From IMG/VR virus record IMGVR_UViG_649989947_000025: 34,029 nucleotides of DNA; one strand, 5' to 3'. The notes below the pieces were generated by a model that saw only the letters and a list, made by a program, of their open reading frames with translations, had not been told where the DNA came from and did not search any database. Position 1 is the stretch's first letter, and each line of letters starts with the position of its first letter. Both the position numbers and the translations under genes were made by a program. The DNA is from a virus. Taxonomy: Duplodnaviria; Heunggongvirae; Uroviricota; Caudoviricetes. This document shows, in pieces, positions 22,063 through 34,029 of this stretch.

Positions 22063-22296
22063 TTAATGCAGCCAGCTGTCGTCCTCCCACACCTTCTGCA
22101 TAATTTTCATCACTTGTTTTCTTTCTTCATCCAGTTGCAGTCCGGTTAGTTCCACACCGTTAGAGCTACCTTTGCGAATGCGAATTACCGTTTTGGGATA
22201 CAGGGGGCGCAGATTGCGGTAAAGCTCGGATTCAAGGGCGTCCAGGGTAGACTGGCTAATCTTCTGCTCTTTATCGATCATTATTTCAATGCGCAT
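22063..22296 (-). CDS. DinI-family protein
   Basis: MRIEIMIDK...LYRNLRPLYP...VWEDDSWL resembles DinI; start at internal Met (longest ORF to 22368). Confidence 0.75.
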   Translation of the reverse strand: MRIEIMIDKEQKISQSTLDALESELYRNLRPLYPKTVIRIRKGSSNGVELTGLQLDEERKQVMKIMQKVWEDDSWLH

Positions 22297-22306
22297 AAAA
22301 GTCACC

Positions 22307-22495
22307 TCAGCTGATGACATCCATTGAGCGGTTGTATTCGTGGCTTCTGATTTTTGCCATAAGTTCATCAGTCAATTCAGAAACCCACTGCAGAGCCAGC
22401 CCCTTCTCTTCATCACTACACTCACTAGCCGCTACAAGCTTAAGAAAAAAATCAATGCGCTGGAGCTTCAAAGACTCCAAAAAATAGTCCTGCAT
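22307..22495 (-). CDS. SOS-inducible small protein, Tum-like antirepressor candidate
   Basis: 62 aa from MQDY with AGGAGG SD; first gene downstream of the LexA box; arrangement recalls the 186 tum operon. Confidence 0.5.
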   Translation of the reverse strand: MQDYFLESLKLQRIDFFLKLVAASECSDEEKGLALQWVSELTDELMAKIRSHEYNRSMDVIS

Positions 22496-22537
22496 CTTTC
22501 CTCCTATGACACCACACACAATGCTGTATGTATAACC

Positions 22538-22556
22538 ACTGTTTATATTTACAGTA
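22538..22556. promoter_or_regulatory. LexA box (SOS operator)
   Basis: ACTGTTTATATTTACAGTA, i.e. CTGT-N8(AT-rich)-ACAG, 43-61 nt upstream of the Tum-like start. Confidence 0.75.
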
Positions 22557-28914: not shown

Positions 28915-29430
28915 TCACAGCAAACCGAATGAAGCACCGAGGCCAGTCACGGTATCAACTGCACTCGCCATCGCAGGATTAGCCTGTAAACGGGCCTGCA
29001 ATGAAACAGCAGCCAGCGCCATCAGTCGTGTAACAGAGTTAATGCTGCTGATCGCATCACGACGGCCTGCACTGGTTTTTACATCGCCAGAAACCGCACC
29101 TGCCGCGACACGCCCTATCTCTGCAGTTGCACTCATGACGTAATGCGGCAGTTTCTCTTTTGCCACCTCATTAATCGGTACACATGGCAGGCAGTGAATC
29201 TGTGCCAGAAAGCCATCTACCAGCGTTGAATCTTCAGTCAGATCGGTAAGCAGCCAGATTTCTGGCGCATTGAGCTGATGCGGTTGATCTGGGTTGAGTT
29301 TGTTTCGCAGAGTCTGGACATTCATTCCTGCACGTTCTGCCAGCTTCGCCATATTGTGACGAAGTGCAAAAGCTCTACAGGCTTCATCAAAATGCGGGTG
29401 TTTGGAAACTTGGTAATCAAACATGGTCAA
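28915..29430 (-). CDS. CII-like lysogeny establishment regulator (186 CII-type)
   Basis: 171 aa, second gene of the early operon after the Apl/Cox-like gene; size matches 186 CII. Confidence 0.6.
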
Positions 29431-30423: not shown

Positions 30424-31347
30424 ATGTCAACTCAAAAATTAAAATTTAGCCATATCAAAAACGATCTGAAAGCAATAGTTATGCAGAATCGTGGAGGGCA
30501 AAAAGTTATTGAGCGTATACTCCTAGCCTATGGCTTCAAGTCACGACAGGCATTATGTAATCATCTAGGTATTTCCCAAAGTACTATGGCCAACAGATAT
30601 GCACGTAATACCTTTCCTGCAGATTGGGTTGTTATATGTTCCATAGAAACAGGAGCATCAATTGAATGGTTAGTTCTTGGTTCAGATACTGCTCCTTCAT
30701 CAGAGCAATATTCTGAAAAACATGCCGTTAATGGCCTTTGCAATGAAGTATACATTCCCACTATAAAGTTCGATAATGAAAAACTCATGAATTTTAACCG
30801 AGGGGGTAAGGCAACAATAGAACGAATTGTCGAGGCTTACGGTTACAAAACGCGCCAAGCATTAGCTGATCACCTAGGTATTTCAAAAAGCACATTAGCC
30901 ACACGATACATGCGTGACATTTTTCCTGCAGACTGGGTTTTGCAGTGTGCAATAGAAACGGGCCATTCTATTGAATGGATTTCATTTGGTACAGGAGAAA
31001 TGAAAAACGCAAAAAATAAAGATACTTTAACATTAGTGAAAAAAGTATTAATCAATGGCAAGTTAATAAATGATGGCTCATATTTATTTGACCCATGCTT
31101 TCTACCTTCCAATTTAAAAAATGCATTCGTAGTATCTACCGAAGACTCTGAATTAATATGTGAAATGGGTTTTAAAGATGTACATGATGGTAAGTGGCTA
31201 GTAAATATTGATGGAGAGAATTCATTTAGAATGATAACTCGACTACCTAAAGGACGAGTTTATATTTCATCCCAAAATCACTCTTTTGAATGTTCGCTTA
31301 CAGACATTGAGTTTATTGCAAAAGTTATTATAAGTTGTTTACATTAA
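30424..31347 (+). CDS. CI-repressor paralog with two tandem CI-type HTH domains
   Basis: residues ~24-88 and ~127-190 each repeat the CI HTH; C-terminal ~110 aa align with the C-terminal domain of the upstream CI. Confidence 0.75.
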   Translation: MSTQKLKFSHIKNDLKAIVMQNRGGQKVIERILLAYGFKSRQALCNHLGISQSTMANRYARNTFPADWVVICSIETGASIEWLVLGSDTAPSSEQYSEKHAVNGLCNEVYIPTIKFDNEKLMNFNRGGKATIERIVEAYGYKTRQALADHLGISKSTLATRYMRDIFPADWVLQCAIETGHSIEWISFGTGEMKNAKNKDTLTLVKKVLINGKLINDGSYLFDPCFLPSNLKNAFVVSTEDSELICEMGFKDVHDGKWLVNIDGENSFRMITRLPKGRVYISSQNHSFECSLTDIEFIAKVIISCLH

Positions 31348-31372
31348 GTAAATTTTTCATGGAGACTTCATA

Positions 31373-32890
31373 GTGAAATGTGGTGATTGTAATTGGAACT
31401 GGGATGAAGAAACTACCTTTATATTAGACGACGAAGAGGAAATTCTTTCCAAAGACAAACTTAATCGGAGACACTATGCAGAATATCTATATTTTTATCT
31501 TAAGGAAAAGGGGCAAAAGAACAACACGGTAATCAACCTTAATGCAGAATGGGGAGCTGGTAAAAGTTTTTTCATAAAGAGATTTTATAACTCAATAAAA
31601 GATGCACACCCATGCGTTTACATTGATGCCTGGAAGCAAGACTTTTCTGATGATGCATTTTTAACCCTTTTTTCTTCTTTGTCACAACAATTGCAAACAT
31701 ATGCAGGAAAACTTGATGCTCGATTGATACAAAGCGGCCATGCTATCGGACGCTTTACAAAAGGTGTTCTACCTGAAATCATATCTGGCCTAATCAAGAC
31801 TTATGCAGGAGTAGATAACGTAGGTGATATAGCCAAAGAAGCCTCATTAATAATGCTGAAGGAACACCAGGAAAAACTGAAGAGCATTAAGGTATTAAAA
31901 AAAGAACTAACGTTATGGTCTAGGTTGGCATATGAAAATAGTTTTTCATGTCCTATATTTATCTTTATAGATGAATTAGACAGATGCAGGCCAGATTATG
32001 CAATTTCTCTTTTAGAGATTGTTAAACATATATTCGATATTAAAAATTTTGTCTTTATTATTGCTACTGACACAGATCAATTACAACATTCAATCAAGAA
32101 TGTTTACGGTAATGATTTTTCCGCAAATGACTATTTAGGCCGTTTTTTTCATAGAAGATTTACTTTAAAACAACCTGAACTTAAAGATTTAATTAATGGT
32201 GTTGTTGGTGATTATATTGGTACCGATTTTGAAAATATCACATCAAAAACACACCCACTAACAGCAACATTAGAAGACTTTTCAATAAATATTTCCAACG
32301 TATTTGAAGCATTTGGGTTAAATCTAAGAGACTCAATCCGAAATACTGAAAGGTTAATAGACATTCTTAAATCTGATTTAGTCAAAAAGAAAGTAGATTA
32401 TATTTTTATAATTTCGCTAATGATTATATATGATAAGGAACGTCAAATTATAGATGGACTAATTGGTCGAAGAAATGCAGCACAACGTTTCACTGATTCG
32501 ATAAAGCAAAGCTCCAATTTAAAAGGTGTTTCTCAAGCCATCCTTGAATTAAATCTTGATACAAATCAGCAAAGAATAGGTGTCAATTATATCTATAGAA
32601 CGGCGAGCAGTAGATTATTCATCTCACAGATCGAGCCCAAAATAAATTTAACATTAATAAATTACTTAGATGTTGCATTGTATTTTATTAATAATATAAA
32701 CATGCTTAAATCAAGTATAAAAAACAATGGGCAAAATTCACTAATGATTATATCTCAACAAGGCCCTATTGATGGTGATACAGCTATAAAGTATTTGCAA
32801 GGAGCCCTTATAGAGAATGGTCTGAATACATCTTTTTATGCCTTACATAATTACATTGAATTAATTGAACTGGCCACATCATTTGATTAA
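31373..32890 (+). CDS. KAP-family P-loop NTPase
   Basis: Walker A NAEWGAGKSFF, KAP-type Walker B FIFIDELDRC, 505 aa, GTG start with GGAG SD; very AT-rich. Confidence 0.75.
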   Translation: MKCGDCNWNWDEETTFILDDEEEILSKDKLNRRHYAEYLYFYLKEKGQKNNTVINLNAEWGAGKSFFIKRFYNSIKDAHPCVYIDAWKQDFSDDAFLTLFSSLSQQLQTYAGKLDARLIQSGHAIGRFTKGVLPEIISGLIKTYAGVDNVGDIAKEASLIMLKEHQEKLKSIKVLKKELTLWSRLAYENSFSCPIFIFIDELDRCRPDYAISLLEIVKHIFDIKNFVFIIATDTDQLQHSIKNVYGNDFSANDYLGRFFHRRFTLKQPELKDLINGVVGDYIGTDFENITSKTHPLTATLEDFSINISNVFEAFGLNLRDSIRNTERLIDILKSDLVKKKVDYIFIISLMIIYDKERQIIDGLIGRRNAAQRFTDSIKQSSNLKGVSQAILELNLDTNQQRIGVNYIYRTASSRLFISQIEPKINLTLINYLDVALYFINNINMLKSSIKNNGQNSLMIISQQGPIDGDTAIKYLQGALIENGLNTSFYALHNYIELIELATSFD

Positions 32891-32952
32891 AAGCATTGTT
32901 TGAATAAACTAAACCATACATTGACCACTGGTCAAACATACAGTTAAATTTA

Positions 32953-32976
32953 GCCCTCTGATATGAGGGCTTTATT
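32953..32976 (+). terminator. hairpin plus T-tract ending at the int start codon
   Basis: gccctc-tgatat-gagggc then tttatt, then ATG at 32977. Confidence 0.5.
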
Positions 32977-34029
32977 ATGGCAGTACGAAAACTCACCACA
33001 GGAAAATGGCTTTGCGAATGTTACCCCGCCGGACGTAGTGGGCGTCGTGTGCGTAAACAATTCGCCACCAAAGGCGAAGCACTGGCTTTTGAGCGTCACA
33101 CGATGGAAGAAACCGAAGCAAAGCCCTGGCTGGGTGAATCAGTGGATCGTCGAACACTGAAAGACGTGGTTGAGCTATGGTTCAAACTACATGGTAAATC
33201 TCTGACTGCTGGGCAGCATGTCTATGACAAATTGCTGCTGATGGTTGACGCTCTGGGCAATCCCCTTGCAACTGATCTAACCTCTAAAATGTTTGCCCAC
33301 TATCGAGATAAACGCCTGACAGGTGAGATCTACTTCAGTGAGAAATGGAAGAAAGGAGCAAGCCCGGTCACCATTAACCTGGAGCAAAGCTATCTAAGTA
33401 GTGTTTTTAGCGAACTATCCCGCCTGGGCGAATGGTCGTATCCGAACCCACTGGAGAACATGCGAAAATTCACCATCGCAGAAAAAGAGATGGCATGGCT
33501 TACCCATGAGCAGATTGTTGAATTACTAGCTGATTGCAAACGTCAGGACCCAATTCTGGCACTGGTAGTTAAGATATGCTTAAGCACAGGCGCACGCTGG
33601 CGAGAAGACGTAAATCTTACCCGCTCACAGGTGACCAAATACCGAATTACCTTTGTAAGAGCGAAGGGGAAGAAAAACAGAAGCATCCCTATCAGTAAAG
33701 AGCTTTACGAAGAGATCATGGCGCTTGATGGGTTCAATTTCTTCACAGACTGCTATTTTCAATTTTTATCCGTGATGGAAAAAACGTCTATCGTGCTCCC
33801 TCGCGGTCAACTCACACACGTTCTGCGCCATACGTTTGCGGCGCACTTCATGATGTCGGGTGGAAACATTCTGGCTTTACAAAAAATTCTCGGACACCAC
33901 GATATAAAAATGACTATGCGTTACGCACATCTGGCACCGGATCATCTGGAAACGGCGCTCCGTTTCAATCCTCTGGCAACGCTGCCAAGTGGCGACAAAG
34001 TGGCGGCAGCGGTTGGCATTACCCCGTAA
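32977..34029 (+). CDS. int: tyrosine integrase (P2/186 Int family)
   Basis: 350 aa with RHTFA and HHDIKMTMRYAHL motifs (catalytic R..H..R..Y); stop codon is the last 3 nt of the window. Confidence 0.9.
   Translation: MAVRKLTTGKWLCECYPAGRSGRRVRKQFATKGEALAFERHTMEETEAKPWLGESVDRRTLKDVVELWFKLHGKSLTAGQHVYDKLLLMVDALGNPLATDLTSKMFAHYRDKRLTGEIYFSEKWKKGASPVTINLEQSYLSSVFSELSRLGEWSYPNPLENMRKFTIAEKEMAWLTHEQIVELLADCKRQDPILALVVKICLSTGARWREDVNLTRSQVTKYRITFVRAKGKKNRSIPISKELYEEIMALDGFNFFTDCYFQFLSVMEKTSIVLPRGQLTHVLRHTFAAHFMMSGGNILALQKILGHHDIKMTMRYAHLAPDHLETALRFNPLATLPSGDKVAAAVGITP

Follow-up and report, generated by a model that had tools for sequence, protein, structure and literature searches.

A putative insulated promoter module with CII and LexA inputs precedes the integrase gene of a 186-like prophage

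We analyzed the region that precedes the gene for the integrase (int) within a 34,029-nucleotide stretch of DNA from a 186-like prophage, the IMG/VR virus record IMGVR_UViG_649989947_000025, which is referred to below as the window. The arrangement that we hold to be probable, with considerable room for error, is that int stands under an insulated promoter with two inputs: CII for integration and LexA cleavage for excision. A hairpin abutting the int start codon would act on incoming transcripts only. The evidence consists of sequence elements, their conservation, co-occurrence and spacing, and predicted RNA energetics. The elements of the module are the following, in window coordinates.

32896..32921, no strand: inverted repeat TTGTTTG-N12-CATACAT, a candidate site of the activator CII that matches the half-sites of the 186 promoter pE
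32921..32926, plus strand: -35 hexamer of the putative int promoter (Pint), which reads TTGACC here and TTGACA in most relatives; from a promoter scan, its columns invariant or nearly so in an alignment of 25 modules
32926..32945, no strand: candidate LexA SOS box CACTGGTCAAACATACAGTT, core CTG-N10-CAG at 32928-32943, which fills the promoter spacer; 18.4 bits with a position weight matrix (PWM)
32944..32950, plus strand: -10 element, read either as TTAAAT (spacer 17 nt) or as TAAATT (spacer 18 nt); from the same scan
32952..32971, plus strand: hairpin AGCCCTC-tgatat-GAGGGCT; from the sequence, the folds and a terminator-like call of the scan
32955..32958, plus strand: predicted transcription start of Pint, near 32956 and thus within the hairpin's 5′ arm; placed by geometry
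32965..32969, plus strand: Shine-Dalgarno (SD) sequence GAGGG inside the 3′ arm of the hairpin; from the sequence
32971..32976, plus strand: U-rich tail TTTATT; from the sequence and the scan, TTTTT(T) in most E. coli and Klebsiella relatives
32977..34029, plus strand: int, tyrosine integrase of 350 aa; open reading frame (ORF) with Pfam domains Int_N and Phage_integrase

A preliminary description of this DNA had reported a hairpin followed by TTTATT directly before the int ATG, with GAGGG of its 3′ arm as the only SD-like run in front of the gene. Both statements agree with the sequence. The letters read, in order, gccctc (32953-32958), tgatat (32959-32964), gagggc (32965-32970), tttatt (32971-32976) and ATG (32977), and an additional A-T pair extends the stem to 7 bp (32952-32971). 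With five G-C pairs, a loop of 6 nt and a stability of about -13 kcal/mol, the stem is of the size and composition expected of an intrinsic terminator (5-10 bp, GC-rich). In a consensus scan, it was one of two terminator-like sites on the plus strand between 28500 and 34029. The GAGGG lies 7 nt before the ATG and is the sole purine-rich SD candidate for int. A weak fold, or an earlier int start with an SD of its own, had been named as possible objections to the hairpin, and neither was encountered. The RNA of 32940-32990 folded with a minimum free energy (MFE) of -16.8 kcal/mol (z = -3.5; 1 of 200 shuffles was equally stable), and, as described below, strong folding is conserved in relatives. 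No in-frame start codon was found upstream of 32977 as far back as the preceding stop, and the N-terminus MAVRKLTTGKW is kept in homologues. The longer read-through RNA, 32935-33010, reached -19.1 kcal/mol (z = -3.0; none of 200 shuffles equally stable), retained the hairpin in its centroid and contained an outer A/U helix in which the AUG is paired as well. A search against Rfam 15 gave no match at the gathering score. Its only match, to RyhB at 32910-32978, reached 26 bits (E = 0.011), below the gathering score of 55, and was set aside as a chance resemblance of a hairpin with a U-tail.

Directly upstream of the hairpin lies a putative recA-like promoter with a candidate LexA box in its spacer. 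The box is the second-best PWM match in the 34-kb window. Only three sites in the window score above the weakest box of the training set, and the other two are the following pair.

22522..22556, minus strand: overlapping pair of SOS boxes before the tum/DinI-like operon; PWM 24.2 and 15.7 bits

LexA boxes at a tum-like operon are the expected positive control for the PWM. The SOS-box consensus, taCTGtatatatataCAGta, is given in PMC7556043. Homologues were scanned in one genome per species and in viral contigs. A LexA box scoring 15-27 bits occurs in about 60 distinct int upstream sequences, at a constant distance of 27-36 nt from the ATG, over a range of int identity from 99% down to 53%. The genera with the box include Escherichia, Klebsiella, Enterobacter, Citrobacter, Raoultella, Kluyvera, Serratia, Yersinia, Rahnella, Ewingella, Pantoea and Brenneria. 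When 25 diverse modules were aligned with MAFFT, the CTG and CAGT of the box and the -35 hexamer were invariant or nearly so, and the -10 element of the relatives stands at the same place as TAAAAT, AAAAAT or TAAATT. In sequence, in overlap with the promoter and in conservation, the candidate box thus looks like that of an SOS promoter.

Several other candidates in this segment were rejected. A perfect palindrome, TTGACCACTGGTCAA (32921-32935), overlaps the -35 hexamer and the left LexA half-site and was called terminator-like on the minus strand by the scan. As an operator it was dismissed, being subtype-specific and not kept in relatives, and it is probably an incidental product of the -35 and the LexA half-site. 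Matches resembling sites of integration host factor near the -35 were inconsistent between clades and were dropped. The hexamer TACAGT inside the LexA box was considered as a -10 element by analogy with pE. The analogy proved false: TACAGT is 17 nt from the CII half-site, the pE hexamer TACAAT (which is not the pE -10) is 10 nt from the half-site of pE, and the published -38/-58 geometry fits TAAAT.

The second putative input is a CII operator whose right half-site adjoins the -35 of Pint. The annotated CII site of 186 pE is ATGTTTG-N13-CAAACAT, and the repeat of the relatives reads ATGTWTG-N12/13-CAWACAT. The copy in the window, TTGTTTG-N12-CATACAT, has a single mismatch to ATGTWTG/CAWACAT and a centre-to-centre distance of 19 bp, compared with 20 at pE. 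Two further features bear on this site.

29398..29424, no strand: CII site GTGTTTG-N13-CAAACAT at the pE position of the window; begins at the cII start codon, as in 186
28915..29430: cII gene; Pfam Phage_CP76, E = 1e-43

These two positions, at int and at pE, are the only sites with at most one mismatch in the window, where 0.04 would be expected. Among 104 distinct int upstream regions, a match with at most two mismatches at the fixed position was found in 67 of the 71 that have a LexA box and in none of the 33 that lack one. Most module-bearing loci contain exactly one further copy of the site, 1-3.7 kb upstream at the pE position. A third CII-like repeat, TTCTTTG-N12-CAAACAT with two mismatches, was noted at 31675-31700, within the gene for the KAP NTPase. 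Chance alone would give about 0.8 sites of this kind in the window, and this copy is probably one of them.

The repeat at 32896-32921 could instead be an RNA or DNA hairpin or a recombination scar at the edge of a hotspot, which would leave LexA as the only regulator of Pint. The repeat stands exactly at the boundary where homology between loci with different cargoes begins, some extensions of its arms covary (for example ATGTATGAATTT/AAATTCATACAT in locus L096), and a promoter with so good a -35 may need no activator. Such an origin seems unlikely to us, given that the arms are conserved in sequence, and not in their pairing only, and match the pE operator, that a fixed spacing of 12-13 nt encloses a spacer of variable sequence, as for a protein site spanning two helical turns, and that the stem would be weak, AT-rich and without a U-tract. 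This alternative is compatible with the rest of the dual-input model.

The position of the promoter relative to the hairpin is what separates the two classes of RNA that could reach int. The CII half-sites of 186 pE have their centres at -38 and -58, CII contacts the alpha and sigma subunits, and basal activity is negligible (PMC6593788). The right half-site in the window is centred at 32918, and the -38 rule of pE places +1 at 32956. Counting 7 nt from the -10 element (32944-32950) gives 32956-32957, which agrees with the CII rule and falls within the 5′ arm (32952-32958). Each of the 55 distinct modules has the first base of its stem 0-3 nt past the -10, and a canonical start falls in the 5′ arm or the loop. 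The median MFE in these modules was -13.5 kcal/mol for the read-through RNA and -1.0 kcal/mol for the RNA from the predicted start (all above -4). In the window, the predicted Pint leader is about 19-20 nt long and its RNA is unstructured in the centroid. Because the predicted start lies inside the 5′ arm, the geometry suggests that only transcripts arriving from upstream carry the hairpin: Pint transcripts would lack the stem and expose the SD, and read-through RNA from cI and the cargo would carry the full stem.

Pint might also start at or before 32952, in which case every int mRNA would bear a 5′-terminal stem-loop that stabilizes the message and throttles translation of Int. Two purines, A32952 and G32953, are found just after the -10, RNA from 32952 retains the full stem (-14.8 kcal/mol), and Int is required only in small amounts. 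Such a start would, however, follow the -10 at only 2-4 nt, compared with a usual distance of 6-9 nt; the pE geometry (-38/-58) points to 32956, and a canonical start falls in the 5′ arm or loop of every distinct module. We therefore regard this possibility as quite improbable.

The preliminary description had supposed that int translation is occluded unless the structure is opened. Carried to its full form, this supposition says that int has no promoter, that it is expressed only from the cI-cargo transcript and that the hairpin is a regulated terminator and SD trap which must be opened. The hairpin, the occluded SD and the U-tail are real, and int of phage 186 is itself expressed from the cI transcript. 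Against this stand a conserved -35, LexA box and -10 with a CII operator directly upstream in every module, as well as a cargo-less phage that keeps the stem. Furthermore, no candidate for an anti-hairpin sequence or an alternative fold was evident at the int leader, which gave the same hairpin only. The occlusion idea is not supported: it presumes an int without its own promoter, yet a candidate promoter and CII operator adjoin it upstream. We consider it very improbable. Given where the predicted start falls, within the 5′ arm, a bypass of the structure is more likely than its opening.

To determine which property of the hairpin is conserved, the leaders of the relatives were folded. The stems are too divergent for sequence alignment, and conservation was judged from per-sequence folds with shuffles. 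RNAalifold on the MAFFT alignment of the 25 modules did not recover the hairpin and returned only the invariant LexA palindrome. Folded one by one, 65 distinct orthologous int leaders had a median MFE of -12.2 kcal/mol and a median z of -4.7, with z < -2 in 94%. Of these leaders, 61 have the SD within the 3′ arm, so that the ribosome-binding site is paired as in fold-back of the IS10 type. For comparison, 35 int leaders from relatives without the module were unstructured (median MFE -0.4 kcal/mol). The stem occurs in 27 distinct versions, which are wholly different between clades. In the close relatives L060 and L064, a compensatory double change converts AGCCCTC/GAGGGCT to AGTCCTC/GAGGACT (C-G to T-A). 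Several C-to-T changes opposite G in close relatives leave G.U pairs that are kept in the plus-strand RNA only. The plus-strand fold was the more stable in 17 cases and the minus-strand fold in 8, in sequences that are not independent of one another.

The U-tract has a narrower distribution. It is present in almost all modules with an int identity of at least 76%, and nearly every version from E. coli, Klebsiella and Enterobacter has T5-T7 there. It is absent at an identity of 73% or less and in two loci at 84-85% (L004 and L105). The versions from Yersinia, Serratia, Rahnella, Ewingella, Pantoea and Brenneria have no U-tract, and their SD is still in a stable stem that abuts the ATG. Because the U-tract is lost in distant clades and the SD is kept in the stem, SD sequestration appears, on comparison of these sequences, to be the conserved property of the hairpin, and termination an addition in the E. 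coli/Klebsiella clade. The earlier expectation that read-through from cI and the cargo ends here therefore holds in part. The strong stem, the U-tail and the trapped SD are in its favour; termination does not look like a conserved function because the versions from Yersinia, Serratia, Rahnella and Pantoea lack the U-tract.

These data also bear on whether the hairpin is a plain intrinsic terminator of the lysogenic and cargo operon, with an incidental SD overlap and no translational role. A GC-rich stem that runs into T5-T7 in almost every version from E. coli, Klebsiella and Enterobacter, and the terminator-like call of the scan, are what such a terminator would give. We judge this explanation to be rather improbable, since clades without a U-tract still place the SD in a stable stem abutting the ATG, some of these lineages carry a separate strong terminator upstream as well, and the property that is conserved (61 of 65) is the SD in the stem. 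The separate terminators are strong GC hairpins with T5-T7, located directly before the CII-site repeat and about 40-70 nt before the LexA box in six loci (L119, L121, L126, L133, L124 and L114) from Pantoea, Winslowiella, Mixta, Acerihabitans and Pectobacterium. By its layout, int in these loci appears to be bracketed as a fully autonomous transcription unit. The notion that a separate terminator goes with a weaker SD hairpin was also considered; Pantoea, Mixta and Pectobacterium fit it, Rahnella does not, and we make no such claim.

The preliminary description had further treated the hairpin as a device for silencing int downstream of the inserted cargo, which in the window is the following.

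30424..32890, plus strand: cargo genes that separate cI from int, for a CI-like protein of 307 aa and a KAP P-loop NTPase of 505 aa; from ORFs and domains

The 307-aa protein has two CI-type helix-turn-helix (HTH) domains and a CI C-terminal domain, and is in effect a CI repressor with a duplicated HTH domain. The pair of CI-like protein and KAP NTPase looks like a candidate defence or exclusion system. Prophages of E. coli KFu019 and E2348/69 share the int region of the window at 99.8-99.9% identity and have CI, CI and a KAP NTPase annotated upstream. In phages that share this int and have other cargo or none, homology to the window begins only at about 32912, some 60-65 nt before the ATG. 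Phages KP12 and 813R9 carry a 558-aa ATPase as cargo and 4LV2017 carries other genes. ESSI2_ev040 has no cargo and 78 nt between cI and int, and the hairpin is present. All four have the SD in the 3′ arm of the hairpin, and their stems differ: that of 4LV2017 is ATGCTCTCC/GGAGGGCAT, and that of ESSI2_ev040 is ACCCCT/AGGGGT with a 13-nt loop and no U-tract. Because it is shared with phages of other cargo or none, the hairpin belongs to int. Comparison of these loci points to it as the last element of an int-linked module of about 80 nt that is not tied to the cargo, and the idea of a cargo-linked device is not supported.

A comparison of the cI-int junction with 186-like phages lacking the insert had been proposed. 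It was informative: 186 has neither hairpin nor gap, and in 186, MHG7 and ST15-OXA48phi14.1, the cI stop overlaps or abuts the int ATG and there is no hairpin. The gap between cI and int has a median of 1.7 kb in module-bearing loci and exceeds 300 nt in 108 of 109, whereas it is at most 22 nt in 16 of 28 loci without the module. The 690 nt upstream of the module fall into 39 unrelated clusters in the relatives. Of 5426 complete E. coli genomes, 1121 contain the module together with the int start, and the module occurs in 20 or more enterobacterial genera. A survey of P2-like phages reports a minor defence hotspot between integrase and primase and does not mention regulatory elements there (PMC13586616). 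A large part of the cI-int cargo probably serves in defence against phages.

Binding of LexA and CII, the start position, termination and translational silencing are what we infer from these elements, and on this basis we propose the following working of the module. In this 186-like lineage, int would be uncoupled from the cI operon and served by a self-contained, insulated promoter module, in the order CII operator (32896-32921), recA-like sigma70 promoter (32921-32950), hairpin (32952-32971) and U-rich tail (32971-32976). In the lysogen, LexA on the spacer would keep Pint off. Lysogenic transcripts from pL or pE that run through cI and the cargo would contain both arms of the hairpin and be terminated at the U-tract. 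In any RNA that passes the U-tract, the SD, and the AUG in the extended helix, would be paired, and no Int would be made from it. RNA polymerase starting from Pint at about 32956 would make a transcript without the stem and with a free SD, and it would not be terminated by its own hairpin. After infection, Pint would fire with CII and give Int for integration. When SOS cleaves LexA, it would fire again and give Int together with Apl for excision, and the tum-like operon would be derepressed by the same signal. Since int would no longer depend on the cI transcript, the cI-int junction would tolerate insertions and could become a cargo hotspot.

A number of observations do not sit well with this proposal. 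The U-tract of the window, TTTATT, is interrupted, and termination may be inefficient here. Some distant loci with a separate upstream terminator still keep a strong SD hairpin, which is unexpected if read-through is all that the hairpin deals with. In modules of the Rahnella type, a start 2 nt upstream of the predicted one would leave a residual stem of 6 bp, and some occlusion of the SD may then remain on the Pint mRNA itself. The half-site spacer of the putative CII operator measures 12 nt in the window, as it does in 42 of 67 modules; at pE it is 13 nt. The -35 of Pint (TTGACC/TTGACA) is near-consensus, unlike the weak one of pE, so the negligible basal activity of a pE-type promoter would not be expected of it, and its need for CII may be doubted. 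Going by these motifs, Pint is not a straightforward pE-type promoter; LexA repression may substitute for a weak -35. Activation by CII may be hindered at a promoter with LexA in its spacer, which is a weak point of the model. The 18.4 bits of the LexA box were obtained with a PWM made from 24 E. coli SOS boxes of the literature (training range 13-27 bits).

The module shares individual traits with several known systems. In IS10, transcripts from outside reportedly include a segment that folds onto the ribosome-binding site, transcription from the IS10 promoter begins downstream of this segment, and only self-initiated mRNA is said to be translatable. The logic of silencing incoming transcripts would be the same here, where it is suggested by geometry. 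Unlike in IS10, the gene shielded here encodes a phage integrase, the stem apparently also serves as an intrinsic terminator in the E. coli clade, and the internal promoter seems to be gated by LexA and apparently by CII. Fold-back inhibition in IS10/Tn10 (Davis, Simons & Kleckner 1985, Cell 43:379) is cited in PMC13181058.

As with lambda pI, there would be a dedicated CII-activated int promoter (a candidate here), and the output of Int would depend on the promoter of origin. In lambda, int transcripts are discriminated at the 3′ end through sib and RNase III. Here, by contrast, discrimination would take place at the 5′ end, and lambda pI has no LexA box. CII of lambda activates integrase expression, and CII of the 186 type is unrelated to it (PMC7708051). 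The likeness to 186 pE consists of the half-site sequence, the spacing of nearly two turns, the predicted position at -38/-58 and a CII of the same Pfam family. In 186, unlike here, the sole annotated CII site is at pE, and int is translationally coupled to cI by a 1-nt overlap. In the window, a second candidate CII site would serve int, its spacer is 12 and not 13 nt, and the -35 is near-consensus and not weak.

In the recA promoter, the LexA box lies between the -35 and the -10. The box at Pint resembles that of recA and of 186 p95-tum in its CTG-N10-CAG with an AT-rich centre and in its overlap with core promoter elements; the annotated LexA site of 186 p95 overlaps the -10. Unlike in the known SOS promoters, the gene controlled here would be int, and the known SOS input in 186 is through Tum only. 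The integron gene intI likewise encodes a tyrosine recombinase under LexA, with recombination licensed by DNA damage (PMC3108266). It belongs to another branch of recombinases and another kind of element, and integron promoters have neither a CII input nor an insulating hairpin.

In a broader form, the claim would be that, in a 186-like lineage present in about one fifth of complete E. coli genomes, the cI-int operon has been replaced by a promoter-origin discriminator. In this form, an 80-nt cassette combines CII and LexA inputs with an insulator hairpin, keeps Int strictly off in the lysogen and leaves the junction free for defence cargo. We put this forward tentatively, at slightly less than an even chance. 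A search of the literature for a LexA- or CII-controlled int promoter in P2/186-like phages found none, nor any mention of a LexA or CII site at int or of the combination seen here, an absence that is not proof of novelty. If the claim is true, a prophage of the P2/186 family would make Int from a dedicated promoter and not from the constitutive repressor operon, which would alter the textbook picture. Pint would sense both the lysogeny decision, through CII, and the host SOS response, while being shielded by an RNA insulator. There would also be a mechanistic reason for the diverse cargo between cI and int. The model predicts that excision competence is directly gated by SOS, independently of Tum. 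As a terminator invisible to its own promoter, the module would be a compact natural part for synthetic biology.

Some minor observations concern other parts of the window. The SOS operon that follows the LexA pair at 22522-22556 lies on the minus strand at 22063-22556, and the pair is colicin-like. In this tum region, a DinI-like ORF (22063-22368, minus strand) is 41% identical to the C-terminal half of 186 Tum only. A 62-aa ORF in another frame overlaps and precedes it and has no similarity to Tum; the two could represent a frameshifted tum or a different antirepressor N-terminal module. Finally, the window is not collinear with E2348/69 (NC_011601) between about 20400 and 29700, where DprA and the portal genes are about 2 kb off the expected place. 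From this layout, the window derives from a prophage that is related to, but not collinear with, that of E2348/69, perhaps one of the KFu019 type.

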